DNA from: a virus
Lineage: Duplodnaviria; Caudoviricetes
Virus record (IMG/VR): IMGVR_UViG_3300027881_000012
Span: 1,065-65,064 of that record
Length of the DNA stretch: 64,000 nt
Direction: 5' to 3' (one strand)
The notes under the pieces were generated by a model, which made no database searches, had not been told where the DNA came from, and saw nothing but the letters and a program-made list of their open reading frames with translations. A program made the translations under genes and the position numbers. Shown in pieces: positions 1 to 64,000 of the stretch. Each line of letters begins with the position of its first letter. Position 1 is the first letter of the stretch.

Positions 1-123
1 GAGGGGATCCCGCTTTGCCAGCTGCCTAATTTCTTCATCGGGTGGGATCCCCTCGAGGCCCTTTCCGGTCCATTCGTGATCGCCTATAAGGCAAAGGAAT
101 TTGCCCCACAATTTTTTAAACAT
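1..123 (-). CDS. Hypothetical protein, 3' end outside the window (MFKKLWGKFLCLIGDHEW...)
   Basis: Hand translation from ATG at 123; AAGGTGAG upstream; open to the window edge. Confidence 0.55.
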   Translation of the reverse strand, partial: MFKKLWGKFLCLIGDHEWTGKGLEGIPPDEEIRQLAKRDPL

Positions 124-126
124 GGC

Positions 127-525
127 TCACCTTTGTTGGATCGTGCTCATTATGCTGGTCTGAAAATTTTGTAAATCGTTTTGAAATTGCCAGGTTATTG
201 CATCCATCAAAGCCGCGCCCATGCCCCTCTTGATAATTTCTTCGATCGTTTCCGCGAGCTTATCTTTGTTTTCCTTCATATAGACATTTACGGCCGCCTG
301 TACCTGGGGCTTTAAGATCTCGGTCAAGATGCCATGAATAAGGGGCTTTTCCTGGTGGCTGCTGTATCCATCCCGCAACTCTAAAGGCTCAAAAAATACC
401 TTGTCCACTCCGCGCTCGATTATCTTTTTGAGCTCATCGTCGGTCATTAGCTCCCCGATCGAATCGCGGATCCGGTCTAACATTCTATCTTCAAAACTTT
501 TTGCTTTCTGAATTTCGCCGGCCAT
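127..525 (-). CDS. Hypothetical helical protein
   Basis: 132-aa ORF with AAGGAG SD, in the - strand operon. Confidence 0.75.
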   Translation of the reverse strand: MAGEIQKAKSFEDRMLDRIRDSIGELMTDDELKKIIERGVDKVFFEPLELRDGYSSHQEKPLIHGILTEILKPQVQAAVNVYMKENKDKLAETIEEIIKRGMGAALMDAITWQFQNDLQNFQTSIMSTIQQR

Positions 526-540
526 TTAGATCTCCTTTCC

Positions 541-654
541 TTATAGCCGCATCCACCAGCTCAATAAATGCGGTGTTATCCAGGCGCCAATCAAAACAGC
601 GGCCAGGATAATTGCATAAACGAAAACGGTTGCATACATTTTTTGCTTGGTCAT
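541..654 (-). CDS. 37-aa single-TM mini-protein (MTKQKMYATVFVYAIILAAVLIGAWITPHLLSWWMRL)
   Basis: ATGA overlap with the upstream stop; fills the gap; hydrophobic helix; below the ORF-track cutoff. Confidence 0.6.
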   Translation of the reverse strand: MTKQKMYATVFVYAIILAAVLIGAWITPHLLSWWMRL

Positions 655-923
655 TTCTTATCCTCAAAATCAAACAGAATTTGATCCGGATCATACTTCA
701 CGGTGGCATCATCCTTTACCCGCGTTTTAACAAAATTGATCTCGGTTTTCTGGATGATCTTGCCGGCCTTATCCTGTTTAATTGTTACGCCAAAACCGAT
801 CTTGGCCTCTTTATCGCCGTTGACATACGCCTCGTCAATTTGATCCACATAATCATCAAAATACTTGCCGATCGTCGCCAGGGCATTTTCTTTAATCATG
901 CTCATTTTCAATTTGTTGGCCAT
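651..923 (-). CDS. Hypothetical protein
   Basis: 90-aa ORF with AGGAGG SD. Confidence 0.75.
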   Translation of the reverse strand: MANKLKMSMIKENALATIGKYFDDYVDQIDEAYVNGDKEAKIGFGVTIKQDKAGKIIQKTEINFVKTRVKDDATVKYDPDQILFDFEDKK

Positions 924-934
924 CTTCTACCTCC

Positions 935-1081
935 TTAATAGCATTTCGTTAAAACCGCCATCGTCCATAGAATAGCTAAAATAAAAAGCACTCTGTTATC
1001 TTGCCGCCTAAATCTGCGCTGTGCTTCACCCTCTGGACCTCTGCGTTTATAATATGCTCGTACTTTCCGCCGGCTCGCCAT
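935..1081 (-). CDS. 48-aa basic mini-protein with C-terminal TM helix
   Basis: Hand translation MASRRKVRAYYKRR...VLFILAILWTMAVLTKCY; AGGAG SD; fills the gap. Confidence 0.6.
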   Translation of the reverse strand: MASRRKVRAYYKRRGPEGEAQRRFRRQDNRVLFILAILWTMAVLTKCY

Positions 1082-1091
1082 TTCTAAGCTC

Positions 1092-1298
1092 CTATTCGAA
1101 TAGCTTTAATTGATCTTTGTCTTTGTCTTGTTTCTCGCGGAAGGTTATTGCCTGGGGCCCTAAGAAGATCTCAACTATCGCGCCGCATTTCCGGCACTCT
1201 AAATGCACTTCCTCGCCGCGCTTTATTTCCTGGTCAAGCTCCACAAAGGGCCGATCTTCAAGGCACTTCGGACATGGGCCAATATTCCTGGCGTTCAT
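1092..1298 (-). CDS. Zinc-ribbon protein
   Basis: CPKC...CRKC. Confidence 0.7.
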   Translation of the reverse strand: MNARNIGPCPKCLEDRPFVELDQEIKRGEEVHLECRKCGAIVEIFLGPQAITFREKQDKDKDQLKLFE

Positions 1299-1669
1299 CC
1301 TGGCTCGGTATCCTCGCTGGTTTCGGTTTCACCCTCGCGCCGCTCTCGATCGCCTGGGTGGTCCTCCGGATCCCGCCGCGTATCATCCGGCGCCGTTTCC
1401 GGTATTTCCTCGACGGTTTGGCCGCCGGTCAATGATGGCCGCTCCGGTTCGGCTACGGCGCTAATCGATTTATTGCACTCATAAAAGGCCTTTTCGTATC
1501 CCTGGGGATCCGCCAGGTACTTTTTAAGATCGATTAGCATCCTGGCCGGCGTCGAATAAGACAAGCGAGCGCAGCCCACATTGACAATGCAGCCACCATT
1601 TACCGTCGGAATGATCTTAATGTCATACGGAAAGGCCAGCTCCAATTTGATCTCTTTTTTAGAGGTCAT
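1295..1669 (-). CDS. Hypothetical protein (start reassigned to MTSKKEIK)
   Basis: ATG at 1669 with GGAGGG SD, overlapping the end of the upstream gene. Confidence 0.65.
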   Translation of the reverse strand: MTSKKEIKLELAFPYDIKIIPTVNGGCIVNVGCARLSYSTPARMLIDLKKYLADPQGYEKAFYECNKSISAVAEPERPSLTGGQTVEEIPETAPDDTRRDPEDHPGDRERREGETETSEDTEPG

Positions 1670-2045
1670 GGGTGCCCTCCGTTCCCCGCGCCTCTCGGCC
1701 GGCGGTCCTGGTTTCAAGTGCGTAAAGCGCATCCTGTAAGTGTAAGAGGGCGGTCGCGTTCTCATCACACTTAAATTTAGATTTTTGATAAAACTGGATC
1801 CGATCGATAGCCGCAAAAATGATCTTCTCGACAAAGGCGCCGTTGGGGATCCGCCGATCTTTGCCGCGCCCCAGGGGCCCCATCTGCCATGAAATGTTAA
1901 AGCCCAGGCCGCTTGATACTCCGCCGGCCGGATTTTCGTCACTATCTACCCAATGCTCGCTAAAAAAATCCATCGGCGCCACTGCCATTTTTGCCAGGTC
2001 TTTTTCGGTGGTTTCAATTCCTGGTCGTTCTTCTTCATTAATCAT
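1659..2045 (-). CDS. tad1: Tad1/Acb2-family anti-defence sponge protein (Thoeris/CBASS signal sequestration)
   Basis: ISWQMGP...NGAFVE...IDRIQFYQKSKFKCDENATALLHLQDAL...RTAGREARGTEGTH matches the Tad1 pattern IxFQxG...G...DRLxxFQxGxF..RENAxALxxxEEAL..R..R..RxVxGT. Confidence 0.8.
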   Translation of the reverse strand: MINEEERPGIETTEKDLAKMAVAPMDFFSEHWVDSDENPAGGVSSGLGFNISWQMGPLGRGKDRRIPNGAFVEKIIFAAIDRIQFYQKSKFKCDENATALLHLQDALYALETRTAGREARGTEGTHDL

Positions 2046-2539: not shown

Positions 2540-2564
2540 TTTAGCAATCCTCGCTATTTATTCA

Positions 2565-3780: not shown

Positions 3781-3793
3781 AGCAACCTCCTGG

Positions 3794-5261: not shown

Positions 5262-5507
5262 TCAAATCCGCTCTATGCCCATAACGCATAAACTATTAGG
5301 CAATCCGAATTCGCCTTTTAAGAAATAAGTCACTTCTACCGCTACCTTGCGGCCGGTGTACCGCTCGGTTTCATTGTTCCATTCTCTTAAAACCAATACA
5401 TCTTGCACGTTAAAATCTCGATCATCCTCGCGTACATCAAATTTCTTAATGCCGGCAAAGATCGATTGAAAAGACTCTGGCCATGTTTTAAGTGTGTGGA
5501 TTTCCAT
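5262..5507 (-). CDS. ASCH/PUA-like DUF3850 domain protein (start at MEIHTLK)
   Basis: HTLKTWPESF..I..G.KKFDVREDDRDFNVQDVLVLREW...YTGR...VTY. Confidence 0.85.
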   Translation of the reverse strand: MEIHTLKTWPESFQSIFAGIKKFDVREDDRDFNVQDVLVLREWNNETERYTGRKVAVEVTYFLKGEFGLPNSLCVMGIERI

Positions 5508-5736
5508 TTTTATGATCCTCCATAGCTTGATTGAGAAAACTGTTAATATCTTCCAGGCATCCCTTATTAAAAATTGTTGCTGGCCTCGGATAAAAGCAAT
5601 ACTGGCGCCAGGGCCCATACCATTTGACGGTCCCGAGTTGAGCGCCGTAATCACGGTTGTTATGGCAAAACCAAGTTTTTGTTTTAGGATTGTCCGGACC
5701 AGGTTCAAAATGAATATACTGATATTTGGTTTTCAT
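5488..5736 (-). CDS. Hypothetical phage protein (start at MKTKYQY)
   Basis: LGTVKWYGPWRQYCFYP...FNKGCLEDI motif; TAATG coupling. Confidence 0.7.
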   Translation of the reverse strand: MKTKYQYIHFEPGPDNPKTKTWFCHNNRDYGAQLGTVKWYGPWRQYCFYPRPATIFNKGCLEDINSFLNQAMEDHKNGNPHT

Positions 5737-10922: not shown

Positions 10923-11255
10923 ATGAAGCAGAAAGCTAGACCGGAATTTCCGCCGGACCGCATTAAGCGGATCCGCGCCTATTTCAAGGAAAACGCTGAA
11001 ACATTCGCCAGGCGTTTTGAAGTTACCGGCAAAACGGTTGAGGCATGGGAACAAAACCGGCGCCAGGTCAAAGGGCCCGCCCTGGTGGTTTTCCGCCAGG
11101 TGGCCGAGGTAATGAAACATTATTGCCCTGTGTGCTCGCGCATCCTCTCAAAGGTCGGCCGCAAAAAGTATTGCCGCGTTTGTGAGGTAGGCGGTGGCCG
11201 CGTTCTCGAATTTAATAACGGTTATATTCCAAAAGTGACGAAAGGAAAGAGCTAA
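10923..11255 (+). CDS. XRE HTH plus Zn-ribbon DNA-binding protein
   Basis: IKRIR...ETFARRFEVTGKTVEAWEQNRR; CPVC...CRVC. Confidence 0.75.
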   Translation: MKQKARPEFPPDRIKRIRAYFKENAETFARRFEVTGKTVEAWEQNRRQVKGPALVVFRQVAEVMKHYCPVCSRILSKVGRKKYCRVCEVGGGRVLEFNNGYIPKVTKGKS

Positions 11256-15986: not shown

Positions 15987-16195
15987 TGGATGAAATACCT
16001 AAACACGTTGGAATATTTGCCGGCTCAAAGATATATTATGCGGATCCGCATGATATGGAAAGGGCTAAACGGTGGGGTAGGCTCATTCACACCGAGAAAG
16101 GCCTGGCGTTTTATATTTGGAATAATGTTACCTACGTCGCGCCGATCGATGATCCGCCTATGCTTCAACTCCTAATCGGTGGAAAGGGCTCTTAG
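15974..16195 (+). CDS. Hypothetical protein, last gene of the + operon
   Basis: Stop codon overlaps the stop of the convergent giant gene. Confidence 0.6.
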   Translation: MDKMMDEIPKHVGIFAGSKIYYADPHDMERAKRWGRLIHTEKGLAFYIWNNVTYVAPIDDPPMLQLLIGGKGS

Positions 16196-19100
16196 CGGGC
16201 CCTTTCCGCCGCCTTTTTCTTTAAGAATTTCCGCCTGGTTTCATAGCGCAGTTTGCGGGGTTCTTCCTTCCGATAAGTTAAATCATACCATTTGATCGCT
16301 CTTTCCAGCGTTTTGAGTTGGGCCGGATTTAAGTCTTTTTTAAACTTGAACCGGTCCATTTTTTTGACGCCGGCCAGCGGGTGAGATTGTTTGATCGCCT
16401 GTTTTAAGCTCGAGGGCTTTCCGCCGAGGTCGTAATATTTCATTAGATACCGCTCGGCCGCTTTGAAATCACCGAATTTTAACGCCTGCTTGTAATAGTA
16501 AAGCGCATTTCCTCTATTGGTGGGCTTGCCATACGATACCTCGATACCTTTATCCTTTTTCCAATCAAAGATCATATTGCGCGTATCATAATAGGCCTGC
16601 TCGCCTGGATCCGAATTATAAACCACCAGCCTTTCCAGGTCTGAAAGGAAATGAGTCGCCATGCTTTTGCCTCGCCCAGGCCTGCCCCTGGCCCGCCGGT
16701 AAATGGCATCCAGGCTAAAGGTTCTTAAAATATGCTCTTTTGTATCGCGGATCGGTCGCGGGCTAAAGGGATCCGGATAAGTGGCGTATCCGGTGGCGGC
16801 CTCCATGAGCATTTTAGGCTCTGGCCGGATGGCATGAAACAACCTGGTTACTAATGCCTTTGGCACTTCGATCAATTTCTGTTGGATCGTTTTTTCGCCC
16901 TTCCATAGCTCCTTAACATCTTCCGGAAAATCCTCTAAACCGAAAAAGCTCAGTGTATCTGATAAGGCGCCCTGGAAACGGATTGACATAATAGATCCAT
17001 CCTCGCGCCGGCCTAAGATTAAATGCAGCTGCCGGCGTCCGGATTTTCCAAATTCTTCTTCTTCCTCTGGCCACAATAAATGATTGTAAATATTGATTAA
17101 GGTGTAAAGCATGGCCGCCTTTGCGCCGTATGCGAGCCCTTTTGTAAGTGCTTTTTTGGATGCAATCGCCAGCGGGCGGGCGCCTGGCTCTCTGCCCTCA
17201 TAGCGCACATTTCGCAGCATATAGACATATCTTGGTGAATTGATCTCCATCCATGAATAAAAAGGCATCAACCGTTTGCGGATCCACTGGCCCGAGCTGC
17301 TTATATTTCCATAATCACCGACCAGCTCGCGGGATAGTTTGGCCGCTCGCTCTGTATCGTTCTGAATCGCGTCTATTTCGTCCGGCTTGGATGCACCATA
17401 CACCCGCTTGCCTTTGGCTATTTCTTGCTTAAAATGCCTAAATGCGGCCAGCCTAAGTATGTTTTCCCTGGTGGTGGTGGCGCCTTTGGCCAGCTGCCAA
17501 TAGCGCATAGCAATATTGGGCTTTTCACCCATGATGATTTGACGCACAAATTTATCAGTGCCCATCTTTTTGGTTATTTCTTCAACCTCTTGAACGGCCC
17601 AACCGGATCCGGTCACTCCTAATTTGCGGGCTAATTGTAGCTCGGCTTTAACGGCCGCGCCGGCCTTGCCCTTATTAAAGGCCCTCAGATCTCGCAGTGA
17701 TTTAAAAAATCCTTTTAAGATTTTCGGATTATAGGCCAGGGTAATGTCAAGATCGCCGCTCATGTTGTTGATATTGTATTTCATAACGCGCATCGGATTA
17801 ATGAGGATATACTGTTTCCACATTCTAAGGGATGCCTCGGAGATCCGGCCGACCATGCGCTGCTCGATCTGCGCTTTGAAATTATCTAAGGTTTCGGTCA
17901 GGCCTGTGGGCATCACCCATATAATATCGCGGCCTTTAGCGAGGATCTGTTTTACATCATTGTCTTGCAGATCGCGCTCGCCGGCAATCACCTGTTGCAA
18001 TACATTATCGGCCAGCGTATTGGCCCAAAACCAGCCTTTACCAGGCTCCGGTTTCCATTCCTCGTATCCTTCCGGTATGAGCTGGCGGAAAGTCAAAAAG
18101 TTTTTGCCCAGGGCAGTTTGAACGTGCTTATTTCGGGCATGAATATTTTTAAATATGGTGGCCGCCCAGGATGCCCCAGGTTGACCGGTCCGGACCAGGT
18201 AGGCCAAAAAGTCAAAATACCTGGCGTCGGAGATCCCCGCCGGCGCTCCCTCTAAATCTTCTTTTTTGGCCCGCTTGATCTCTGCGAGCTGGTCGATTAT
18301 ATCGGCAAATTCTGAATCGCCGCCGAGCTTGTCGTTAAATGCCATATTTTCAAGCTGGCTCGAGGCCATAGCGATCTTTTGACGATATGGAAAAAGCGGA
18401 TCCAGTTTGCTATCGGCCATCACTTCGCCCACTGTTATCTCGGTTTTAAATTGAATTGATAGCTGCCTGGCCGCTTGTTTGTAAAAATTAGTTAAATTCT
18501 CGCGCTTGGCCTGGTCTTTAAGCTGGCCGTAAATATCCGCCTGGCGTTTGATCCGCTCTAAGGTTTTAGCGGTTTCCAGCTGGCCGAGCTGCTGTGATAA
18601 TGCGGTAAATTCGGCCTCGATATACTCGGTGTTATAATCAAGTAGGGATCCCTTTCTGGCTGCCATCCAGGGCCGCCAGTGCTGCCTTACATCGGCGGAT
18701 CCGGTCGACACACCCTTATTAGTGTCTTTCAATCCCCAATATTGCAAAACCTGATGGTGAAAATAATCCTCATGTTGCAGTACTTCTTTTTTGAGGATCT
18801 TAAATTTAACCAGCTGGCCGACCATGTTATCAATATAGGCCTTTCGATCGCTCAAAGCGGTGGCAATTTCCGGATGAATTTCAGCCAGGCGCTTAAATTG
18901 GGCATCGGCTGTCTGAACGTCTTGGATTGTTTTAAAGCCAAAAGGCAGGGTTTCGCCCTCGCGCAACATTTGATCGTTTAAAAGGCCGGTTTTAATATCG
19001 CGCATCATATCGGCCAAGATGATATTCATTGTGTAAATATCATAGGCATCGGTGCTCAGATCCTTGATAAAGTCTTTCATCTTTTCGGCTGTTATCGATC

Positions 19101-22100
19101 TTGCGTTTTCGGGGATCTCCTGGTGGATCCGGAGTATATCGGCCAGCTGCGCCCGCTGTTTTTTATTCTCGATCTTTTCTAAGCCTGGGAAGTGGGCCCG
19201 CTCCATTTTGAGCTCGGCCAGCTTTTCTTTTGTCGTTGCCATAAAAGAGCCCTTGCCCACACCTTTGGCCGCCGCCATGCGCCTTGCAACATCTTCGGGT
19301 AGGATCCCGCCGTAATCAATCGCTTTGCCGTATTTCTTCTTTTTAAATGCGGGGGTCTGGCCAGGAAAGGCGCTCACCCTTTGGCCGGTCAAAGTGAATT
19401 GCCGCGCTGCTGCAATAAGGGCTCTTATCTCCGGATTAGATAGTTTAATATCAAGATCTAATTTCCGGAGCCAGTTTCTAATCGCCGCCACAAGGCGATC
19501 ATACCATTTTGATTTAATGCCGAGCTGCGCCTGGTTAGCAAACCATTCCTCGGCTGCCTGCATCTGACCATCCATAGTGGTTAGATCAAAGCCCAATTCC
19601 CTGCCGATCTTATCGACTTCATTCTTTTTGGCGATATAAAGATCTCGCAATACCTTAAAAACATCTTTCCCCTCTTTCCCCAGGGTGCCGCGTAATCCAT
19701 GATGGCCGAATCCTTCATGCAAAATAGTGGTTACGATTTCCTCATTGGATCCAATATTATCAGCTACCAGGTAAATGGTGTTTTTATAATAGGCGCCGGT
19801 AATTATTGAATTCTCGCGGCCGTCTTCTTTGATAAAGTCCATGACTTCTGGCGGTAAGCCCTGTTGCTCTTTATATACTCTGATTTTCGGCCCAGGCGCC
19901 GCCCATTGAGCTGTGACGGTTTCGACCGTCGTATTAACATCTTCGACGGTTACAGGATCCGCCGGCGCTATTAGTTTCCTGGCAAAAACCGGACTATCAC
20001 CTAAGATATAGTCAAAGGTTATCGGCGCCACTTTTTGATCTAAAATATCCTGGGTTTTCTTTGGGCTTGGCACTTTGCCCTGGTCCGCGAACGAAACGCC
20101 GTTGTGCCTAAACTCAAAGAGCTGCATCATATTGCCGCCGACGTTTTCATTCCACTCGGTTAAAAATTTCATCCGGCTATTTAATTCTGCATCGGTGCCT
20201 TTGGAATTGAATATAAAAACAGAGGCATTAAGGCGCTCGCCCTCGGCTATGATCTCCTTTAAATTTTCGCTTGCCGTTTGCCCTGGCGTAAACTCCACAA
20301 AGCCGAGATCGTTCAGCTTGTTATCTAAAAATAAATAGCCCTGGCGGTCATTGTAATATTTTTCTAAATGCGCTGTTAATTCCCCTGAATTACTAATCGG
20401 GCCGCCGCGCCTTTTGCCGCGCTCAATAAATCTTTCAACAATCGGTATTGTTGTCTTGCGGGTTGTTTTTCTAATTTTACCTTTTCTTTTAACGCTTGGC
20501 GCTGCTGAAATGGGGCTGTAAAGTGCCCACACATCGCCGCCCACAATGATATTTTCGATCTCCACTCCGCCGGCTGCCGCCATTTCAATCAGCGTGTAGG
20601 CCATAGCGCGATCCTCCGGCGAGGGGTCCGCCTCTGCCGAGGGGTGATTGTGGATAAAATAGGCCTTTGTCACACCTGGGGTATTGAATAGCCGGCCGAC
20701 CGTTTCAACAATGGGTATGCCGACCGCTCCCCTGGCACCTTTGGCGATAAAATGCACTTCTTTAATATTGCCCTGGGCATCGACCGAAATCATATAGCCC
20801 TTTTCCTGGGCCTGCTCTGTGATCGGCTGTATAAAGGCCGCTGCATCTTCCGCGTTTGCAATAACATGGCTTTCAAAGCCCATTTCTCCGGTCGATCTAA
20901 TTTCTACTTTCTGTGTCGGCTCCGGAAGTGCCTCGACGGCCTTTTCGGTTTTGGCACTTTGAGCATATTCAAGCAGATCCATTTGAATGGCTTTTTTGCC
21001 GGCCTGGATCTTTTTAGCAACCTTGCCGGCAAATTCGGCGCTGGCCTCGCTTAATGTTGTATCTGCTATCCTGGGGCCCTGGTATCCGCCGGCTATGTTT
21101 GTAACCGGCCGGTTTAACAGGATCCGGTCAAAAATCTTTTTATTGTTTTTTGTGGGTATAAAGACGCGGGTTTTAAAATTTATTTCCTCGATGATCGCGC
21201 CTTGCTTTTCTAACAAATCAATATCTCGATGGCCAAAATCTAAAAGCTCGATCCGCTCGTCACCGGATACCATTGATTTTTTAAATGCCCATCCGTTTGC
21301 CAGGGTTACGCGAGCGCCGCCCAGGATCTTAGCGCCCAAAACGCCTGACTTTACCTGGGGTGCATCGGCGCTCGCTCCCAAATTGGTAAGCACTTGATCT
21401 AAAACATTGGGGTGAATTACGCGGCCCAGGAGCCTTTCACCGGCGTCTGTTTCCATCCGGTAAACGGTTGCAAAGCCTACCAGGCGATCCCAAACGCTTA
21501 AAAGATCTCCGGTTATTAAATGAATATCTCGGTCGGTGGTTTCTGGAATGTTGGCGTATTCTGCCGCCCATATCCGCGCCGGTGAAAGATCGGGCTTATC
21601 GGCTAATTTAATCCATTTATCCTCATCGGTTAAAATACTTTCATCCTGGCGCTGGATCGTATCGTTTGGAGATTGCATTTTCCGATAAGCAATAATGGAT
21701 CCGGTTGTAGTGGTTCTATCCCTGGTTTCGCCGGCCGCCCATACCCTACCGGATTTTATATTTTGATAAAAATTAAGGTGTGAAACGTCCTCAAAGGCAA
21801 CTCGCCTGGATGGCTCGGTCACGCTAACACGCACATATTTTGTTTCCGCTCCGCTTTCCGGATCTGTATGCACAACTCTTTCAGACTCCTTTTCAACTGC
21901 CAGGCCGTCGATCGTTTCAATTCCCACATCGAGGGTGCCGGCCTCCGCGTGTGCCTGGATGATCCTATCGAGCCGATCGGAAATATCACCAAAAAATGTA
22001 TTTTGAGAATTGATGGTCATTGAAAGCATCCGGTTTAAAACCTTTGTCATTTCCGGAAGTTCGCCCGTAAGTCTGCCGGTCCGCTCATCGACAATCTGCA

Positions 22101-25100
22101 ATCCGGTCTGGTGTTGAAAATCCTCGGCGCTCATTTCCAGGGTGCCGGCAACCATATCCTCAAAGGTCTGTACCAGGGCCTCGCGGGCATAATCAGACTC
22201 TAAATTATCTCTGGCTTGAAAGATGCCCTGGGATCCGGCTTGCCGCTGGCCTTTGGTTAATGCGCCGAGCTGGTCAAGGCGCCGAGCGATCGAGGTCACA
22301 AAACGCTTTTGTGCTTTTAGATTGGTAGTAATAAGCGTGTATTTCGGCGCCTGCCTTTGGTTGGATCTGTGAGAGCGGCCCAGGCCTTGCACTGCTGTCG
22401 AGGCTTTCCAGCCTGGCTGCAATAAATAATGTTGTCGCAGCCTTTGATTTTTATATCGTTTATCGGCGTGATAGCTGACTCCGGTACCGCCGGCCTCAGA
22501 AAAAATCAAGATCTGTTTTTCATCATTTTTAAAGGCCTCAACATCTGCTTTAGCTTTTGCGAGGCTCCATTTTTGATTGATATACTCGCCGGTTTCCAGA
22601 TCTTTAACCACTCTTGATTTTCTGCCCGTTACCTCGGCAATCTTATCAGTTCCAAAAACATTAAATAATTGATCCAGGGGAGAATCGGGGATCCGGAGTG
22701 CTCCGATCTCGCGTAGCATGGCATCGCGCATGGCTACTGCCTGCCTATTTTCAACCGGATCGCCGGCCTCGTCGCGGACTAAAACAGCATATTCATTTCC
22801 ATCCTTATCGGTCCGTATCTCGTATTGTTCAATCGGAAAGGCCCTTTGTAGATATTCTGAAATTGCAATACGGGGGGTAAAGTCAAGGTCTTCCAGATCT
22901 TCGCCCTCTTGCCGGCGTTCAAGAGCTCGCTGGACCGCAGCATCATTAGTTTGTGTAAGCTGGATAATAACCGACTCACCATCTGCAATATTCTTTTCCA
23001 TCTTCCTGATTAATGACGGCATCTGCATGGCGGTCATTATCGAGTCAAACACTCTTATCTGTGTGCCAAATAGCCGGCCTCTGGCCGCCATCTTTGCCCT
23101 GCCGGACTTATTGCCGTTGGTCAGTTCAAGGGCGGCCTCAGTGTTGCGCATGATGACTTGCCAGGCCTCCGCTAATTTGTCGTAAATATCGGTTTGTTCC
23201 TCGGTTAATTCATGCACTAAGCGATCATAGATGACACCATCATAAGAAAGCGACGGCGCCATATAAAGGCCCCTGGCTTTCATGCCCCTGGCGATCATTT
23301 CCATAGCGGCCAGGCCGGATTTATTAATCTCCGCGATAAAGGCCCGCTTGTCTGCAAAGGAAGTGCCCTCACCCCACAATCCCAGGCGCTCGGCATAGGC
23401 AAAATTACTCACTTTGGTGGCGCCGGTGGCCGATACATATATCACCCTGGCTTTAGGCAACATCGTTTGCAGCAAGACGCCGGCCAGGGCTTTGTCGGCC
23501 GTCGGCTTTCTGCCCCTGGCGCCCTGTTCTTGCATCGAGTTTGCCATATTGTGTGATTCATCAAAGGCGATCACTCCATCATAATCGGCGCCGGCCCATT
23601 CCACTATTTGATTAATCCTGGCCCGCATATCGTCAAAAGACTCCGGCTTATTCAGATTGATCTTTTTAAAGCCCTGGCCCAATGTCGAATAGGTTGAAAA
23701 TAATATCGTGTTATCTCTATGTTTAGCTTTTACTTTTCCGCCGGCTGCTGCCGCTTTATTCAAATTGACCAGGGCCTTTGCTCCCTCGCTCCATCCCATT
23801 TCAATTATATCGCGGCTGGCGTCATTCAATAAGCTCTGCTTTTCAGTTAGCCAGATAGCCTTTTTGCGGCCCTTGTTCCAGTTATCCATCATAATAGAGG
23901 CGATAATCCGGCCCTTGCCAACTCCGGTGCCATGACCGGCAAAGGCGCCCATGCGGGTGCCATCCGGCAAAAATCGTTCGTGCGCCTGGCCGGCGTAAAT
24001 ACTAAATTCTAATTGCACATTGGAAATGCCGGCGCTCTTTTTCGTCGGCTTCAATATGTGTTTTGGTAGATCTGGCTTGTAGGTGGCCTTTGGTAAATCG
24101 GTATCGGACAGGGCGGCCGTTTCAACTAATGGCGTCGGGTGCGGCCTGGCGCCTTTGACTTCAACATTCGGCTGGTATTCCTCATATAATGAGGCCTTAA
24201 TTTTTTCGCGCTTTTTCTTCCTGGCCTGGATAAGATCTTTTCTCACTGGCGCTGGTGCTCGCGCCAGATCCGGCCGGTCGGTTGTATAATAGTATTTAAT
24301 CCAGTTTCGGCCGACTTCCGGATCAATATTATATTTAGCCAGGTTCACCAAAACATAGCGGATCCACTCTTTTCTTTCGCCTTTAAATTCAGTGTAATTT
24401 GCATCAAGTATTGGTTTGGCCTGCTCATAAGCCTGGGGATGCAATAAGGCCTCAAATGCAGCGGCCGGCTCTCTGACTTCGGCCGCTGCCTCTAATTGCG
24501 TTTTAGGAAAGATCTTGGTGGTAATGTTGTCAAGCGTCTGAATTGATCGCGGAGCTGCGCCGGCCTGGTTAATTAAACCGCCATAGGCCAAATAATCATC
24601 GAGCACAGCATCATAGGCCTCTAAAAAATCCCTGGCGTCTTTTTGATTGGCAAAGAAAATATCTTGTTCCAGGCCTGGCACATTCATTTCAATCGGGTCC
24701 GAATCTGCGATATTTGATAGGGGCTCGATTAATTGCTTTAATATGCCTCTCGTATCTTGGGCCTTTTCGGTGCCGTATTTGCCTATTTCCTCGGCCCAGG
24801 TCTGCGTCATTAAATCAAGTTCTTTGGCTTTGACAGTGGGTTTATATTCTGCGGTGGGTTCTTTGATATTGCCTATAATATTGGCAATAGCAGCGAATTG
24901 GCCTTGATCGGTTTTAGGTATCTTGCCCTTTACAGGCGGTTTTTTAGGTGCGGCCTTTTTGCCGCCGGCCGGTTTCGCGGTTAGATCTTCTTCCTCGATA
25001 ACCTCATTAATAAGAGCGTCTAAATCATCTAAGCTAAGGTCGGGGGCTTCGGGTATCCCCTCACGCTCTCGCTCATCGCCTGGTCTAATTCGTTCACCAG

Positions 25101-28100
25101 GTCGCTCGCCAGGTCTTGCGGGTTCTCCTGGTTCGATTCCAGCTCCCTCAATCTCAGGTAGCCGGCCACCTGGTTCGGTTGGTGGTTCAATAGCTCCGCT
25201 AATTTCGATTCCAGGGGTTGCACCAGGTTCACCAGGCCGGACTCCTGGGCCCACACCAGGAATTGCAGCGGGTGGAGCTCCTGGGGGTTCGGCACCTGGC
25301 CGCTCTGTTTCAGGAATTTGCTCGACAGGCGCGACACCGGCAACCGGTTCAAGTTCTTCGCCTGGTTTATATATTGTTTGTCGGTCATTTCTAACGCCCT
25401 CCAATAATGGGATTAAGTCTTCGATTTTATCGACTTTTCCACTTACTAAATTATACGCCTGTGGGCCTGTTTTGTCAATGATTATCAAGCGATTATCAAA
25501 CGTGGTGCCATACTTCTTATACTCCTGGCCAGATATGCCCACATTGGCCGAAACGGTGTAATCTTTTTTGATGCCTTTCCACCATTTTGTGAACGCCGGC
25601 GCGTTGTCTGCCATGCCCTTGCCGACGATCGCCACCAGGCGCCCGCCATCTTCTAACCTGGCCAGGGCTTGCTCTATTTGATCGGCGCCAAACTTGGTTG
25701 CTCGCTTGCCCAGGACTCGGCCGGCGGTCGCGGAAAAGGGCGGATTCATTACAATTACGGTGGGCTTAACAGTTTCGGGCAGTATATTATCAAGCTGGCT
25801 GGCATCCTCAGTGAAAACCGTTTTAAATCCCATCTCGCCCAATAGGGCCGCCCGCCGTTTGTCCAGCTCATTGACAACAATATTATCACCGACAATTTGC
25901 CGGCCAAAAATAGCAAGCCCGCCCACACCGGCCGAGGGTTCAAGGTATGCGTCATTTTCTTTAATGTTCGCTACCCAATTCGCCACATAGGCCAGTGGTG
26001 GCGGGGTGCTAAACTGTTGAAACTCTCCTTGTTCCCTGGTTCTTTTGGTCTGCGTCGGTAGTTTTGCGATCGTATCTTTTAACCATGCGATATTTTCGAC
26101 CGCGTTTTCCGGATCCCGCATTGTGAGCTGGTCGTGAACATAGATATTAACGCCTTGCTCCATAGCATCATAGGCGTCTTTAGGCGTATATTTACCCTGG
26201 GCCTGGGTGCCGGCAAAATCTATATCGGCCTGCTTAAATAGATCTCGCCAGGTTATCGATTCATCTTTGACTAATTTTGTATTTATCCAATTAGCCAGCT
26301 TTGTGGATCCGGCCGCCTTTTCGTGCTCCGGAGCTGCCTTTTCAGCTGGCGCCGGCGCCTCGGCCGGTCGATATTTTTCAATTTCTTGCGTTGTGGCCAG
26401 GGCCAAGTCATAATCATTTTGGGTAAAATCCTTTTCGCCAGCTTGAAAACGCTGCATGGTTTCAACGGCTGTGTCAAAAACGTCTTGGATTTTTTCGGCC
26501 GTTTGGCTCTCGATAGGCTCGCCATAAAATACCTCAAAGGCGGTTTTCTTTTCTGCCGGTGCCTCGGCCTCTACTCTCCATCGGCCAGGCATCAAGGGCA
26601 CAACATCTTTTTCAAGCACTAAACGCTCGGCATATCCGCCAGATACCGCGCCGACCAGCTCCATAAAATCATCCTCGGTCATAGCTCGCGGTGCATCTTC
26701 CGGAAAATAAAACTTGATCCCTTTATCCTCGGCCTGCTTAATCTTGCCGGCTAAAATGCCGGTGGCCTCGGTCCTGGCATCGTCGGTGCGTTTCGGCGGT
26801 TTTGCGATTACATCGGCATTTCGGGCCTGGATAAATCCGAGCCTGGCTGCCGCATAGTTAGGATATTGAGTAATGGCTACAACCTCGCCGGCGTCTTTGT
26901 CGACCACTCTAACCGTTGATTGTGCGCCTGGGGCTGCATCGGCGGTCGGTCGCCATAGCTGCGTTAATACGCCGATATTCTCGCCTTTGGCAATCAGCTT
27001 GCTTTCTGTTTCTCTGATACTGCGCACTGTGCCGATTTCATCATCTAAAAACGGTAACTCAGCCAGGGGCTTTTCTTCCGGCGCTGCCTCTGCCGGCGGT
27101 GCCTCAACTTTGGGCGCCTCGTCTACGATCCGCCGGATTAATACGCCTTTGGTGCCAGTGGCTTTAATCCCTAATATTTGCGCTGCCTCTACCAGGTCCG
27201 GCTTTGAAAATGCGGTTAGCTGCCGGTGCGATAAATCGATCTCGCCGCGCTGGATCCGGCCGGCCAAGATTTCGCCATCGGTCTTAGTGGTGATAGTGGG
27301 CGGGGGAGCCTCGACCGGCGCCGCCACTTCTGGCGGAGCTGCCAGGTCAATTTCAAAATGTTCTTGTAAAGATTCTTCCTGGGTTTTCGGCTTAAACATC
27401 TGTACTTGCTTTTTAGTATCTGCCGCCGCGTCGGTCGCGTATGCTTTCCAGCGTTCTTTGTGCCTGGTGGGCTTGTCTTTGATAAGCAGATCCGCCAGCT
27501 TTTCGGTAACAACCGTATATTCGGGCTTGGCTTCAAATAAAGGTTGCTGTGCTAAAAGATCTCTGACGCTTAGATCCTGGGCCTGGGCTGCGGTCGCCAG
27601 ACGTAAACCCTCTTTAAGATCCGACGTTATATCCCATTTGCCGCCTCGAGCCTTAACCTTTGCCAGCTCGGCCAGGGATTTTTCAATCTTGTTTAGGTGG
27701 GATTTTTGGGCGCTATTGATAAGATCGAGATCATCCACAATATTACCGAAAATGGCCAATTCGATTACTTCTTTACCCCTTTTGTTCAACAAATCGCCCT
27801 TTTCGTTCAAATATACGTTCTTTTGTGTCGCAGAGATCGCGCCATCATCGATGAGCCAGCCGAGGATTTCAAGGCCGTCTTTCTTGCCCAGGAGCTCACG
27901 CAGTGAAATTTCGCGGTCGGTCAACCGGATCCCTATTTTTTCCATCGTCGCCGGCTTTATCGCTTTGCCCATCGAGGCGGTTTCCGCTGCCTGGCCCATG
28001 CCCTGCGTCATGGTTTCGTTGAATTCTCGCGCCAGGGCCCGCATTACATACTCGCTTTCAATCCGGATCCGGCGGATCAATACCGGCTGTTTCATCGGCT

Positions 28101-31100
28101 TTATATCTTTGGGCGCCAGGCCAAATTTAGAGGCCGCCGCTATCAGCTGGTTTTTATACCTGGCTGCCTTTTTAGGATCCTTAAAGGCCAGCTGGATTGA
28201 CATAGTTCTGGAATTTCCGGATATAACAAAATCGCTTTGATCGACAATCGGCGGGCCGCTGGTAGGCGTCGGATCATCTGAAAGTAAAATCCGAGGATCC
28301 AGCTTGTTTGCATTTGTTATAACTTTTGCTTGCTCGGCGGTATCAGAATGATAGGCGCGTTCCTGTATCCCTTCCGGATAATCGCCGTAAGGCTGGAATG
28401 TTTCGGGGTTGTGGCTTGGAAAGAGTGTGCCGGCCTCAACTACCGTGTAGTGTGCTCGATGGCCCTCTGCATTTTGCGGTGTTATGATCCTGGTTTCGGC
28501 CTTTTTTGATATGGGCTTTGGATAAAACTTTTCCGCGATCGGCCTAAGTTTATCCAGCAAATCATCCATATAGGCCGCTTTGCGTTTGAAATGATCGTAT
28601 TTTAAGACCGGATTCTCAGTGACTCCTTTTTCCTCTAATTCCTTTGTGTAGGCGTTTGCCTCGTCGCGCTTATCAACAATCCACTGCCGCGCTTTGTCAA
28701 TCGTTTCATAGCTGCGGGGATCCAAAACGCCCAGGGCTATCTTGACATAACTTTCCTCGACTCCACCAGGCTTGACAAATTCCTCCCAGGGTTTCGCCGG
28801 CAAAGTGGCCTCTGGCGGGCTGGTGGGCTCCGGAGTGGTTGCTCTCTGTGGCGCCACCCTGGGCCCGCCCTTTAAGTCCGGTTTTTCTTCTGGCACTGCT
28901 GGCATTTCCGGCGGGGCTGCCTCTAATTCTGCCGGTGGCTTTACGGTTTTGCCGGCCTCGACTTCATAGCCCTGGCGCCTTAATAATTCAGCGTAAAATT
29001 CATTTAAAGGATCAAGCGGATCCAGGGCCCGATCGGTGGCATACTCCGCGATCGTATTAATGCCCAGGCGCTCCATATCGGCTGGAATATTGGCCACATC
29101 TCGCTCAACCTGGGCCCTGGCCTCGGCTAATTGTTCCTCGGCGCTCATCTTATCCCAGGCTTTTAATCCGGCCATTTTTCTTAACGCCGGCATAACGCCT
29201 TTAACGGCCGCCTGGTTTTTTGCAAATTCTCTGACAATCCGCTGCGTTGCTGCTGCACCTTTGGGCAGGGCGGGAGCCGGCGGGGGGGGTGCCGCCGGCT
29301 TTGCGGGTGGGGCTGCTGCGGTAGGTTCTTCAAACATATCCTCGGCCGCTGTGGCCGCGCTCGGTCGATCTTTAAACATTCCCAGGCTGGCACCTTCGGG
29401 GCTTACAAGTTCAATTAAGGTGCCCTCCGGTAATTTATGCTCAACAAGGCCCGCGCCTGTATCCAATATAAAAGAGGGCTCGCCGGCTTTGGCTGCCGGT
29501 GCCGCTTTCCATCGAGGCCCTAATTTTTTTACCGGCGGGGGAGCTGCCGGCGGTTTCTCTGGAACAACCTCGACTTTTTTAGGTGGCGCCGGCGGAGCTG
29601 CCTTTTTCATTTCAAAGGCTGCCAGGTCCGCCCGCATGAGCCCTAATTTTTCTTTAAGGGCCATATCTTTGTCTTTAATCAGATCGAGGACCGATTTCTT
29701 TTGCTCCGGCGATAAGCTGGCCACTAAATCATTATATTCTTTTTTCAAGGCCTCCGGCTTTTGTGCCTTTTTAATAATGCCGGCAATCTCTTTAAAGGGC
29801 TCGCCTTTCTTTTTGGCCTCGAGCGCCTGGGCATATCCCTTGATAACAGTATCGACAAAACGCTGTGCCTCGGCCTTAGTTTTATGAGCTCGGCCAGATA
29901 ATGTGAACGTGGCGCCTTTGGCCGCGCCGCTGGTCACTGTCATTTGCAGGCCGACCGGTTTCTCGTTCTGATAGATCACATTGTCAAAGCGGATCTTAGC
30001 GCCGGACTTTTCGCCCATTTCATCGGCCAGGGCTTGAAAGGTTTTGCGCTTAGAGGGCGCTATCCTGGTCGGTGCCTCGCGCTCGGCCTCAACTTGCGCC
30101 ACTCTGATAATACCCTCCGGAGCTTTCGGGGGCGCTTTTGCCGGCGGGGCTTTTTCGGGTACCAGCGCCGTTACTGGCTCTGCGGGCACTTCGACCGCCG
30201 GCGCTACTTCCGGAGCCTCGGCCGCTGCGGCCTCTAATTCTTCCGCCGTAAATTCGGCTGCGACTTCCTCGGCCTCGATGCCCTCGGCTCCGACAAATTC
30301 CCTGGGCGCTGTGGGTGGGATTTCCTCGGCCGGTACTCTTTCGGCTGCGGCCTCTGGCGCCAGGTCTTCATCTAATAAAATATCCTCGGCCGTCTGGCCG
30401 TCATAATCTTTTAAAAGGCGGTCTATTTGATCGCGGGCCTCTTTGCCGGCTGCCTCGACTTTTTTCTTGGCTCTGCGCTCGGCAACCACTCCATAACCGT
30501 ATTGAGTAGATGCGGCCGGTCCGCCTAATACTGGCTCCATTACCGCGCCGATCCGGCCTTGTTCATGCACTCCCTCGAATAAAGACCGCTCGGATCCAAC
30601 AAATTGGGCCGCCGCGTTTGACACCATTTTCTGGCCGCCTTCCTCAACATAACCGGCGCCAGATTGTTTTGCGGTCCATAAAGTCGGCCTGGCCACTGCC
30701 CAAACGCCTTTTTTTGCTAATTGGGCGCCCTTTTTGCTCATGGCTTTTTGTACGAATAGCCTGATGAGCTCGCGCTTCATGGCCTTTTTGCCAACATTCT
30801 TGCCAAAGTGTTTCAGTAAAGCAGGGCCAAAACCTAACCGCTCACCCAGGCCCTCAATAAATGCTGATGGTATAGCGCCAATCAATGTGAGATCCGACTT
30901 AACCTCATCGGGCACCTTGATGCCCTCTCTCCTTTCCAGCTCCGTTAATTCGGCGTCGATTTCTTTAACAAATTGCGGAAATAAAACCGCGCCGGCCATT
31001 AAGGTGGCCAGGCCAGGGCTTTTGGTGGCGGTCTGCACTCCCATGTAAGTGCCGATTGATAAAAATGAATTGACAATATTAGTTGAAATAGTTTCACCCC

Positions 31101-59858: not shown

Positions 59859-59878
59859 ATTTCAATCTCCGCATTGGC

Positions 59879-61346: not shown

Positions 61347-61363
61347 ATTTCTTGCTCCCCTAT

Positions 61364-61390: not shown

Positions 61391-61438
61391 CCTACTGGTT
61401 ATCGGCTGCCGGCCACCTCAAATAACCGGCGCCTTTGG

Positions 61439-61639: not shown

Positions 61640-61712
61640 TGTCCTTTACTCCTTGTTAAGGTTCGATTCGATCGTCTACCCTGACCGATATTAGCCCTAT
61701 TCAGAGCTAAAT

Positions 61713-62108: not shown

Positions 62109-62135
62109 TGAAAAGGCCCTCCTTTCCTTTAGGGA

Positions 62136-62573
62136 TTATGCCGGCGGTGGTACTCTCGGCTCCATCGCGCCGGCGTCGATTTTGAGCCGCTTGGTTGTCA
62201 AGACGGCCGCCTCGACCTGGCCGGAAATAAATTCAGCCAGGTTATCGTTTGCGAGCTCTAAAATTTTCTTGGTGGCTGTTGGTAGCTGGTCGGTAATTGA
62301 TTTAATCGCGGCCTCTTTTAGCACCTGGCCCTCATCCTGGGTAATCGCGCCATCGGCGCCTACTTGCTTAACCGTTTCATTTACCCGCACAACCGCGCTT
62401 TGCACCACTCCGCTTAAAATCACCATAGCATCATCGACGGCCTGGCTATCGGTCTTGGTTTTAATCCATTTTTTCAGCTCGTACAGGGCCCAGGTTGTCA
62501 AAGCCGATACGGCCGCCACTGCAAATGGAATAATAATTGCTAAAATCTGCTGCGATATGGTTGATTCATCCAT
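62136..62573 (-). CDS. Holin, LL-H-like
   Basis: One N-terminal TM; V.SAV...E; I...VEAAV. Confidence 0.65.
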   Translation of the reverse strand: MDESTISQQILAIIIPFAVAAVSALTTWALYELKKWIKTKTDSQAVDDAMVILSGVVQSAVVRVNETVKQVGADGAITQDEGQVLKEAAIKSITDQLPTATKKILELANDNLAEFISGQVEAAVLTTKRLKIDAGAMEPRVPPPA

Positions 62574-62590
62574 CTGTTAGCCTCCTGCGT

Positions 62591-63079
62591 TTAGGTTTTT
62601 AATTGAGCTGCGCTAAAGCCATTTTTCTTTAGCAGCATTAACACGCGCTCATCGAGCCTGGTTAAAAGTGTCTGGCCTGCATCCATCTTTTTAGCCAGGA
62701 GATTAACATCTTTCTTGATCGCATCTTTATAATCCTCAAAATCTCCGCGTGATACCGTTTCCAGCCTGGCCCGCTCCCGCAGCCGGTCCATGCCTTTTAG
62801 ATCGTGCCTGACCTCATCGATCCGGCCGATTAACATAGATTGACAAACTCCCTGGTGCGCTACTAATTGATCGTCTAAGCGGGTGATCTCCTTTTGAAAA
62901 TCGACCTGGCTCACGGCCTTTTCCACTTTATGCTCCAATCCTATTTGCCTTTTATTGATCTTTCCCAGGCCCTCTTTTAGGTTCGGAATTGCAAATTTGA
63001 TCGTGCCCCAAACTGCTCCGCCGGCCACAACTATGATAATACCGATCAAAATCAGTATATGTAAATCTTTGATAATCAA
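62591..63079 (-). CDS. Membrane-anchored coiled-coil protein (holin/antiholin-like)
   Basis: N-terminal TM, coiled coil, LTRLDER; AGGAG SD with TTG start. Confidence 0.6.
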   Translation of the reverse strand: MIIKDLHILILIGIIIVVAGGAVWGTIKFAIPNLKEGLGKINKRQIGLEHKVEKAVSQVDFQKEITRLDDQLVAHQGVCQSMLIGRIDEVRHDLKGMDRLRERARLETVSRGDFEDYKDAIKKDVNLLAKKMDAGQTLLTRLDERVLMLLKKNGFSAAQLKT

Positions 63080-63115
63080 AGTATTTTCTCCTATTTGCTC
63101 GCATCGGCGCCCTCA

Positions 63116-63151
63116 GAAAACAAAAACCCTGGGGGTGGTCAAACCCCAGGG
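63116..63151 (-). terminator. Rho-independent terminator upstream of the lysis/late genes
   Basis: CCCTGGGG-TTTGACCAC-CCCCAGGG followed by TTTTTGTTTT on the - strand. Confidence 0.75.
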
Positions 63152-63252
63152 CTCATGCAAAAGAAGATAAAAATAATGGTTGATCCATCGAGTCGCCCGT
63201 TTACGTTCAGAATTTTGACTCCGGATAGCAGACGCTCTTATGGTATGCCTAA

Positions 63253-63675
63253 TTATTTAGGCTTGTCAACCTCGGATTTTTTCTCGGCCTCATCGGCGTC
63301 CGGTTTTTTCTCGCTCTCTGCCGCGTCGCCGCCTACTGCGCCAATACTTTGAATGTTTTGAACGATCTTAATTACGCTGGCTGCAAATTTTGTTGCCTGA
63401 TCCGGTTTCATGGCCATCCAGCTGATACTCTGCCCAAAATCGACAACTATCTGGCCGGCCTGCTCCTTGACCTGGATCCGCAAATCTCGCTTGGGTATCG
63501 CCATGCCTGCGCCTGGTGGCCCGCCGCCTATCGGAATACCATGCTTTTTGGCCAGCTCCTTGACCTCGCTTAAAAAATCCAGCTGCTTTTTTGTGTCGGC
63601 TGCCGCCTGCTCGCCCGCCTCATCTCCGCCGTTGCCTTTCTGCCGGCTCGGTGCTTTCTGCGATTTTTTAGCCAT
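63253..63675 (-). CDS. Hypothetical protein (start at MAKKSQK), paralogue of 5736..5975
   Basis: GGAGGG SD before the internal ATG. Confidence 0.6.
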   Translation of the reverse strand: MAKKSQKAPSRQKGNGGDEAGEQAAADTKKQLDFLSEVKELAKKHGIPIGGGPPGAGMAIPKRDLRIQVKEQAGQIVVDFGQSISWMAMKPDQATKFAASVIKIVQNIQSIGAVGGDAAESEKKPDADEAEKKSEVDKPK

Positions 63676-63840
63676 TAAACCCTCCCTCTTGTTCCAGGCC
63701 GTAGCGGCCTCTTTTAAGTTACGGTGAAAACCGGTCTGGATCCCACACCCTCGACACTGGATCCAGGTATCACTCCCGCCCTCTAACTCCATGACCAGGC
63801 CCAAATCATTACAATCTGGACAATGTTTGATCTGTAAAAT
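63676..63840 (-). CDS. Lar-like restriction-alleviation Zn-ribbon segment, in frame with the downstream gene
   Basis: CPDC...WIQCRGCG..T......EAATAWNKR; apparent ATT start with AGGGAG SD; no stop before 63675. Confidence 0.55.
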
Positions 63841-63998
63841 TAGAACAGCTCCCTTTCGCCGGCGGTCACTTCTCGATACGCCGTTTCGAATACGTCTTTG
63901 GGGCTCCATGAAATATAGCCATCCGGATATTTCACCTGGTAGCCTAACCGATCATCCCCGATCATCGCCTTGCCCTGGCTCTTTTTAAATTCAAACTC
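63840..63998 (-). CDS. 5'-truncated phage protein with a GYxVxYxDGYxSWSPKxVFExAY domain
   Basis: Hand translation ...GYQVKYPDGYISWSPKDVFETAYREVTAGERELF*. Confidence 0.75.
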   Translation of the reverse strand, partial: EFEFKKSQGKAMIGDDRLGYQVKYPDGYISWSPKDVFETAYREVTAGERELF

Positions 63999-64000
63999 GG

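Follow-up and report, generated by a model that had tools for sequence, protein, structure and literature searches.

The 64,000-base window analysed here, bases 1065-65064 of one 65,064-base virus record (IMGVR_UViG_3300027881_000012; G+C 0.50), is close to the whole genome of a Bcep22-like tailed phage, and it carries a genome-wide oligonucleotide bias (positions 1..64000) in which 31 of the 64 hexamer palindromes are absent while 13 others (GGATCC, GCCGGC, CGGCCG, GGCGCC, TCCGGA, CGATCG, GAGCTC, CTCGAG, AGGCCT, AGATCT, GGGCCC, CAGCTG and GTCGAC) are enriched, together with the word CCWGG. The surplus is genuine and operates on the DNA itself. That half of the palindromes are purged while about a dozen others stand at 2-4 fold their codon-aware expectation is an unusual combination. 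Palindrome avoidance in phages is textbook knowledge; a first-pass annotation of the window had invoked it as the rule, and the phage obeys it to an extreme degree. A surplus resembling the highly iterated palindromes (HIPs) of cyanobacteria, linked to host DNA methyltransferases and superimposed on restriction avoidance, would be the best available reading, and we favour it tentatively, at somewhat less than an even chance.

Excess of GGATCC and of other palindromes

The first-pass annotation had drawn attention to seven GGATCC sites at the start of the window (5, 45, 468, 1368, 1506, 1796 and 1847, spanning 5..1852) and had described the word as frequent throughout. An exact word count recovers all seven positions and gives 119 occurrences in the window, with 0-7 per 2 kb, against Markov expectations of 15.2 (order 0), 20.4, 29.2, 50.9 and 72.8 (order 4). 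Codon-aware expectations were obtained from the 74 longest non-overlapping open reading frames (ORFs), which cover 95% of the 65,064-base genome, with 200 shuffles under each of three nulls: synonymous codons shuffled inside each gene; whole codons permuted; and, as the strictest, dinucleotide-preserving form, third positions shuffled among codons with the same first two bases, the same amino acid and the same next base. The 117 GGATCC sites found in ORFs compare with 30.2 expected under the synonymous null (z 19), 19.3 under codon permutation (z 23) and 54.0 under the strictest null (z 14), a fold excess of 7.8 over base composition and of 2.2-3.9 over the codon-aware nulls. When all 4096 hexamers are ranked by the strictest null, GGATCC comes first and GCCGGC second, and the top 40 hold eight palindromes and many CCWGG-containing words.

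All three reading frames share in the excess (31, 40 and 46 sites, against 2.3, 8.6 and 19.0 expected), and 31 of the 75 Gly-Ser pairs are encoded as GGA-TCC where 2.3 would be expected. The word is 2.5-3.1 fold in excess in plus-strand genes, minus-strand genes, the giant gene described below, the early module and the structural module alike, and the 6 of 123 sites that lie partly or wholly outside ORFs, in 3.6 kb of non-ORF DNA, amount to the same density as within ORFs. Since the excess survives the codon-aware nulls and is present in every frame, neither amino-acid and codon usage nor confinement to a single frame accounts for it, these being the two outcomes that the first-pass annotation had named as refuting its claim. 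GGATCC is also not part of a tandem or longer repeat, because GGATCCGGATCC occurs 0 times. Palindromes of 8, 10 and 12 bases are mildly above base-composition expectation (350 vs 254, 86 vs 64 and 25 vs 16). Contigs from four runs are nearly identical to the window over 20 kb; of the variant positions, 40 could be placed, with 163 more beyond that set, and an enriched palindrome is hit by 1 of the 40 (2.6 expected), too few to be informative.

The further palindromes that had been listed as abundant proved so under the synonymous null: GCCGGC (187 vs 71), CGGCCG (105 vs 45), GGCGCC (101 vs 56), TCCGGA (91 vs 33), CGATCG (61 vs 23), GAGCTC (46 vs 11.5), CTCGAG (31 vs 11) and AGATCT (37 vs 22); CCWGG, named likewise, occurs 498 times against 176/265 expected, an excess of 2.8 fold. 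Densities per kb reach 1.89 for GGATCC, 2.94 for GCCGGC, 1.64 for CGGCCG, 1.64 for GGCGCC and 1.52 for TCCGGA, and 112 of the 187 Ala-Gly pairs are written GCC-GGC, with 50 expected. Enrichment is limited to contiguous palindromes and CCWGG-derived words; half-site pairs 3-6 bases apart show no excess (ratios 0.93-0.96). Several GC-rich palindromes are neutral in this phage, among them GCATGC (7 vs 8), GGTACC (6 vs 8.9) and TGCGCA (10 vs 11).

The signal belongs to the exact hexamer. Among words of the form NGATCN, GGATCC was counted 123 times, against 22-44 for each outer one-off neighbour; GGATC without a following C (93) is no commoner than the non-palindromic AGATC (85) and CGATC (86) words and is rarer than the TGATC words (131); and under the strict null the mean for one-off neighbours is about 1x. 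The palindrome excess is not a by-product of avoidance: in a constrained null, built by Markov chain Monte Carlo swaps of synonymous codons in which any swap creating a purged word was rejected (172 hexamers, 9 short and 14 gapped words; 6 replicates), the expected count of GGATCC rises from 29.9 to 35.5 with 117 observed, while GCCGGC (86 vs 187 observed) and GAGCTC (11.5 vs 46 observed) remain well in excess and CTCGAG alone is about half explained (11.2 to 19.2, with 31 observed).

Nor is the excess a flaw of the null. With the same ORF calling and shuffles, the ratio of observed to expected palindromes in total is 1.00, 1.00 and 0.97 in three bacterial samples, 1.02 in Bcep22 and 0.72 in Itty13, and it is 1.21 in the studied phage (labelled G000 in comparisons with its IMG/VR relatives, which bear L numbers) and 1.29-1.41 in the close relatives L004, L005, L006 and L008. 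Outside this close clade, 11 of 13 related loci have ratios of 0.29-1.04 and no hexamer palindrome with z>3 under the synonymous null; the exceptions are the Desulfobacula loci, with two such words, and L079, with four. Among the samples run, purging combined with a 2.5-4 fold excess occurs only in G000 and its close relatives.

Purged words and the states of palindromes among relatives

The first-pass annotation had not remarked on the purge. The 31 hexamer palindromes at zero would together be expected some 330 times under the synonymous null, for example GATATC (29), CCGCGG (27), TGATCA (20), GCGCGC (20) and CAATTG (17); none of the 84 Asp-Ile pairs is encoded as GAT-ATC, where 25 would be expected. 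Shorter words are affected as well (CTAG 2; CCSGG, that is CCCGG/CCGGG, 0; GTCTC/GAGAC 0; GGGAC 2; CAGTC 2), and so are 14 gapped palindromes found 0 or 1 times, including TCGNCGA, TCCNGGA, GCTNAGC, GGTNACC, CCTNAGG, CAGNNNCTG, GACNNNGTC, GAANNNNTTC and GCANNNNNTGC. Palindromes bear more of the purge than other words: among words with an expectation of at least 8, the purge has taken 18 of 48 palindromes, compared with 77 of 2003 double-strand hexamers that are not palindromic. The asymmetric words CTGGAG, CTCTTC, CTGAAG, GAATGC and ACCTGC are absent where 20-33 would be expected, with GAGGAG listed likewise (1 vs 26 in the coding sense); CACGAG is absent with 14 expected, and the CCRYGG and CTRYAG sets are absent too. 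The pattern of these asymmetric and degenerate words suggests that Type IIS and degenerate Type II sites are avoided, and many of the purged words coincide with sites that known Type II and IIS enzymes recognise. With recognition-type words lying this far under codon-aware expectation, the purge is explained with high confidence by restriction avoidance. Apparently far more words are purged here than is usual in phages.

A capsid-based scan of IMG/VR yielded 599 related stretches, and 80 loci were retained from these, all relatives being fragments. Eleven of them (L001-L010 and L059) share 88-94% capsid identity and 72-81% nucleotide identity over aligned parts with the studied phage. With the codon-aware null fitted per sub-clade, each palindrome is found to be purged, neutral or enriched, and its state varies among sub-clades. 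GGATCC is enriched in G000, in L002 and L005, in the L004 group and in L008, and is absent from L003 (0 vs 4.1 expected), from which GAGCTC and CAGCTG are missing as well. CTGCAG is at 0 in G000 and in L002 and L005, and at 49 vs 16.5 expected in the L004 group; GGTACC, neutral in G000, stands at 30 vs 14.7 in that group. GATATC, TGATCA, CCCGGG and CCGCGG reach about 0.7-1.7x in the relatives that have them. Specificity for the exact hexamer, together with these differences between sub-lineages, points to restriction-modification components, DNA enzymes that are sequence-specific and vary between hosts. As a separate observation, the distant relatives L028, L039, L040, L069 and L024 are almost without GATC, CCGG and GGCC (0, 0 and 0 in the 11.9 kb of L028), three words that are 2.5-3 fold in excess in the studied phage.

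Individual GGATCC sites tend to be retained. In ten relatives that have the motif, sites are conserved in 99 of 185 aligned comparisons, against 18-29% for all hexamers, and in L003 0 of the 22 G000 sites are conserved. In a codon-matched test, which considered only codons with an unchanged amino acid and set like codon against like codon, the synonymous codons within GGATCC are more conserved than expected in 9 of 10 relatives (z 1.5-3.2; L002 at -0.2) and far less so in L003 (z -4.7). TCCGGA and GAGCTC give a weaker conservation signal. CTCGAG occurs in L006 and L007 where most relatives have TTAGAG, a two-base change, and every one-base synonymous route between the two that was followed manually (through CTA, or through TTG and CTG) makes a purged word. 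CTCGAG is also common to L006 and G000 at three places (1631, 4211 and 4621 in L006), whereas each of the remaining relatives aligned there, numbering three to six per site, has a different hexamer (e.g. CCAGGG), likely through mosaic exchange between sub-lineages.

Possible origins of the excess

A density of 1-3 sites per kb, the GC-rich palindromic nature of the motifs and the conservation of GGATCC make a HIP-like, methyltransferase-linked origin the best available reading. Enzymes of the restriction-modification type then appear to have shaped the short words of the genome both ways. Synonymous change has removed words at which restriction enzymes cut and at which the lineage is unprotected. 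The enriched palindromes would be sites of the methyltransferases of the habitual host, whether orphan or part of restriction-modification systems, at which the phage would always be modified, so that the sites would cost nothing and could be gained or retained through some benefit of methylated sites or through methylation-linked repair. A lineage that shifted to hosts able to cleave one of these sites would then purge it, as may have happened to GGATCC in L003. The tentative preference stated at the outset applies to such an excess as maintained by selection; a neutral repair drive would add a smaller share of probability of its own. A bolder version, which we hold to be possible and rather doubtful, has a clade of marine phages with a whole panel of HIP-like palindromes under positive selection as methylation-dependent tags (e.g. 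self-marks, or recombination or repair signals read by host machinery), each switching between hoarded, neutral and purged with the restriction-modification repertoire of the hosts. If that were true, restriction-modification would drive phage sequence both ways, and word content would record the methyltransferases that a phage has lived with and the nucleases that it has fled.

The comparison with cyanobacteria rests on HIP1 (GCGATCGC) and the alternates GGGATCCC, GGCGCC, RCCGGY and GCSGC; in Elhai (2015, PMC4390886), GGGATCCC, GGCGCC and RCCGGY are given at 1-2 per kb, each alongside a cognate methyltransferase, and a methylation-directed repair ratchet is proposed. HIP1 sites are conserved, and selection on them has been argued (Xu et al. 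2018, PMC5861425), and later work ties methylated HIP1 to transformation and recombination. HIP1 itself occurs 6 times in the studied phage. Like HIPs, the enriched words are GC-rich palindromes that lie within genes in all frames at a density of about 1-2 per kb; the motif sets overlap (the GGATCC core, GGCGCC, GCCGGC and CGATCG), the top motif is conserved above background, and one motif is replaced by another between lineages. Unlike HIPs, they are hexamers rather than octamers, they reside in a phage rather than a cyanobacterial chromosome, and they coexist with the total purge of 31 other palindromes.

That purge has its counterpart in the restriction-site avoidance of phages, in which Type II-like palindromes, gapped palindromes and asymmetric words are likewise absent (Rusinov et al. 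2018, PMC6286503); the related phages L040, L069, L075 and Itty13 show this ordinary form. The studied phage differs in having, in addition, a positive excess of other palindromes, which avoidance does not predict. In Helicobacter, CCGG is in excess by about 1.4-1.5 fold, which Rusinov et al. (2015, PMC4687349) leave unexplained while suggesting that methylation has a positive effect. The likeness is that a Type II site is over-represented although, or because, a system is resident; the difference is that many hexamers at 2-4 fold in a phage stand against one tetramer in a bacterial chromosome. The published literature searched yielded no phage in which restriction-type palindromes are in positive excess by site and by lineage, and the unexplained cyanobacterial HIPs and the CCGG of Helicobacter are the sole parallels found there; the 'overrepresented palindromes' of Caldithrix (PMC5317091) are an 18-base intergenic repeat and not relevant. 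Close relatives that differ in which words are purged, neutral or hoarded lend themselves to comparative study of whether selection or drive acts on methylated sites. The restriction-modification repertoire of a host, nucleases and methyltransferases alike, might also be readable from phage sequence and so aid in linking uncultured phages to hosts.

Several points weigh against a methyltransferase-linked, HIP-like origin. HIP genomes show gross over-representation, at 15-300 fold, of one dominant motif, and the phage has at least 13 enriched motifs, each only 2-4 fold above a codon-aware null. Spacing is random (inter-site coefficient of variation 1.02, range 9-2535 bases) rather than periodic, in a 65-kb genome that is too short to show the 10-90 kb periods reported for HIP1. 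GCCGGC, CGGCCG, GGCGCC, TGGCCA and ATCGAT show no conservation above the codon-matched background, and the relatives in the conservation tests are mutually non-independent. No methyltransferase family matched in the 39 distinct ORFs scanned of the 74, nor in the giant protein, the 35 ORFs outside that scan being nearly all under 140 aa; and neither the capsid scan nor counts of CGGATCCG found a host genome. The ORF calls are crude, with a real plus-strand gene at 11255-12481 displaced by two spurious ORFs, to small effect. Finally, extra methylated sites are not known to bring a phage any clear advantage.

The neutral form of the methyltransferase-linked origin, a mutational ratchet in which methylation-directed or very-short-patch repair turns near-sites into methylatable sites without benefit to the phage, generalises the model of Elhai (2015) and appears unlikely. 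It draws on CCWGG, whose C-to-T neighbours are the most depleted (CTAGG/CCTAG 0, CTTGG/CCAAG 0.40-0.51, TCAGG/CCTGA 0.20-0.29), on the scarcity of CTAG and on the values for GAGTTC/GAACTC (0) and GGATTC/GAATCC (0.51). The CCGCGG sites of L005 recur in 0 of 9 cases in L004, 1 of 10 in L006 and 1 of 9 in L008, against 22-23% for all hexamers, as if gained independently. Very-short-patch repair in Dcm/Vsr hosts is reportedly the cause of a CCWGG excess and a scarcity of CTAG, in work ascribed to Bhagwat and McClelland in 1992 and to Merkl et al. in 1992, and the phage resembles that signature in its 2.8 fold CCWGG, near-absent CTAG and depleted CTWGG and TCWGG neighbours; it departs from it in being apparently much stronger than in E. 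coli and in that the signature does not extend to all-G/C hexamers. C-to-T neighbours are depleted for CCWGG, in part for GGATCC and GAGCTC, and not for GCCGGC (1.08, 1.13), CGGCCG (0.92-1.72), GGCGCC (1.13-1.23) or CGATCG (0.92-1.52). GGATCC, moreover, does not contain the GC dinucleotide that Elhai's specific model needs, its conservation over the codon-matched background points to retention rather than turnover, and the depleted neighbours overlap other purged words (CTAG, CTYRAG, GGWCC). The suggestion in the first-pass annotation, of a HIP1-like process or of sites marked by a host methyltransferase, stands in part: specificity, density and the conservation of GGATCC speak for it, and a simple repair signature fails for the four palindromes just named.

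The first-pass annotation had offered, as another possible marker of the sites, a methyltransferase domain in the 5408-aa multi-domain (DarB-like) giant protein encoded at 16192..32418 on the minus strand. This protein has ddrB-ParB, AAA_34 plus Helicase_C_4 (Strawberry-notch-like helicase) and RadC/JAB domains joined by long Ala/Pro/Glu-rich linkers, and resembles the 'polyvalent' anti-defence proteins that phages and conjugative elements inject; in Bcep22 a giant gene in a similar place bears the annotation 'DarB-like antirestriction', a likeness by annotation and not by alignment. The methyltransferase- or ParB-like domain of the protein would, on this view, load or act at GGATCC-type palindromes and so protect incoming DNA. 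That GGATCC is the sole clearly conserved motif would suit such a role, as would the ddrB-ParB, helicase and methyltransferase-like parts and the Bcep22 annotation. The methyltransferase-like stretch (25144..26226, minus strand) was read from the translation and consists of two short motifs, ...EPSAGVGGL... and NPPF at residue 2225, which we take to be motif I-like and motif IV. Pfam returned 0 families on 25819-27018 (which covers the motif I-like stretch and stops about 75 bases before the NPPF codons), NCBIfam returned 0 families on 25144-26226, and the best match of the stretch in a sequence search of the PDB, to a tRNA methyltransferase, had E 0.037 and is not significant. One domain faces 13 motifs that switch independently among sub-lineages, for which it is insufficient, and other Bcep22-like phages and related loci have no comparable excess (these being fragments that may or may not carry the giant gene). 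The claim that the sites are those marked by this domain cannot be upheld, since one motif pair cannot explain 13 enriched palindromes, and the broader proposal that the sites serve the giant protein is improbable. As a side observation, Bcep22 (L189) is annotated with two stand-alone DNA methyltransferase genes, at 13535-14647 and 27046-27492, which have no counterpart among the ORFs scanned in the studied phage.

The pattern could instead be a relic of a palindrome-rich ancestor of the clade, with only losses since and mosaic recombination shuffling segments in which a word is on or off. About half of the GGATCC sites of G000 lie at the same positions in relatives, and the CTCGAG sites common to L006 and G000 suggest exchanged segments. 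We give this little credence: it leaves the richness of the ancestor unexplained, the replacement of TTAGAG by CTCGAG in L006 and L007 is a derived, multi-step gain, CTGCAG and GGTACC are enriched in one sub-clade only, and synonymous conservation within GGATCC exceeds background.

A purely compositional origin, in which codon bias and context together with the loss of so many competing words would create the excess and nothing would act on the palindromes as such, is largely refuted and has a slender chance. Favoured codons do form reverse-complement pairs (GCC/GGC, GAT/ATC, CCG/CGG and CTG/CAG), the order-4 Markov model gives observed/expected ratios of just 1.1-2.0, and the constrained null covers part of CTCGAG. 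The same null leaves GGATCC, GCCGGC and GAGCTC far in excess, the dinucleotide-preserving null still yields z 14, GGATC without the final C is no commoner than AGATC or CGATC and rarer than TGATC, the bacterial and phage controls are calibrated at 1.0, and the same palindrome is in different states among relatives with equal codon usage. A generic physical preference for GC-rich self-complementary hexamers (through RNA or single-strand DNA pairing, or DNA structure), limited only by restriction, is disfavoured and very improbable: the strongly enriched palindromes do all have 4-6 G+C, and eight all-A/T palindromes are neither purged nor enriched, but site and lineage specificity argue against it, as do the GC-rich palindromes neutral in G000, the 0.7-1.7x reached by GATATC, TGATCA, CCCGGG and CCGCGG in relatives, and the lack of excess in spaced half-site pairs.

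Gene content, host search and further observations

The assignment to Bcep22-like (Lessievirus-type) podophages is supported by a capsid, portal and terminase in common and by the giant DarB-like virion protein. At the capsid protein, identity is 47-50% with Pseudomonas phage Itty13, Agrobacterium phage Atu_ph08 and the Burkholderia phages DC1 and Bcep22. Among the products recognised through PHROG and Pfam matches are the large terminase, the portal, the major capsid protein, a replication initiator and an NlpC/P60 hydrolase, and further proteins with coordinates as follows. An SbcD-like (Metallophos, E 1.4e-4) and SbcC-like (PHROG 77) nuclease pair lies at 11255-14936 on the plus strand, followed by a VRR-NUC nuclease at 15218-15655 (plus); a DUF3850/ASCH protein is encoded at 5262-5708 (minus), and a protein with a Lar restriction-alleviation domain (PF14354, E 2.4e-7), which gives an anti-restriction context, at 63253-63909 (minus). 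No tRNA genes were found in the phage.

Near-identical DNA is present in runs labelled seawater metagenome. A capsid scan of a genome collection was tried as a route to the host: the nearest genome-borne relatives have 60-69% capsid identity, the best (69%) being a prophage in a Syntrophus metagenome-assembled genome, and these loci do not have the pattern. CGGATCCG was counted in 401 genomes of the phylum of that Syntrophus genome; 14 top genomes, sampled further, have 57-73% G+C and tetranucleotide correlations with the phage of 0.15-0.63, and their high CGGATCCG counts are due to their G+C content.

Contigs of four runs (X2-X5) all link position 51319 to position 35060 through an identical 35 other letters, a junction that could represent a rearranged relative, another organism with both flanks in common, or a repeat. 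Some words are strongly strand-asymmetric (CCGCGC 66 vs 2 for its complement GCGCGG; TGCGCC 37 vs 0 for GGCGCA), which is consistent with most genes lying on one strand. Shine-Dalgarno-like words are rare within genes in the coding sense, with AGGAGG at 6 vs 30 expected, GGAGGA at 8 vs 36 and GAGGAG, mentioned above, at the lowest count of the three.

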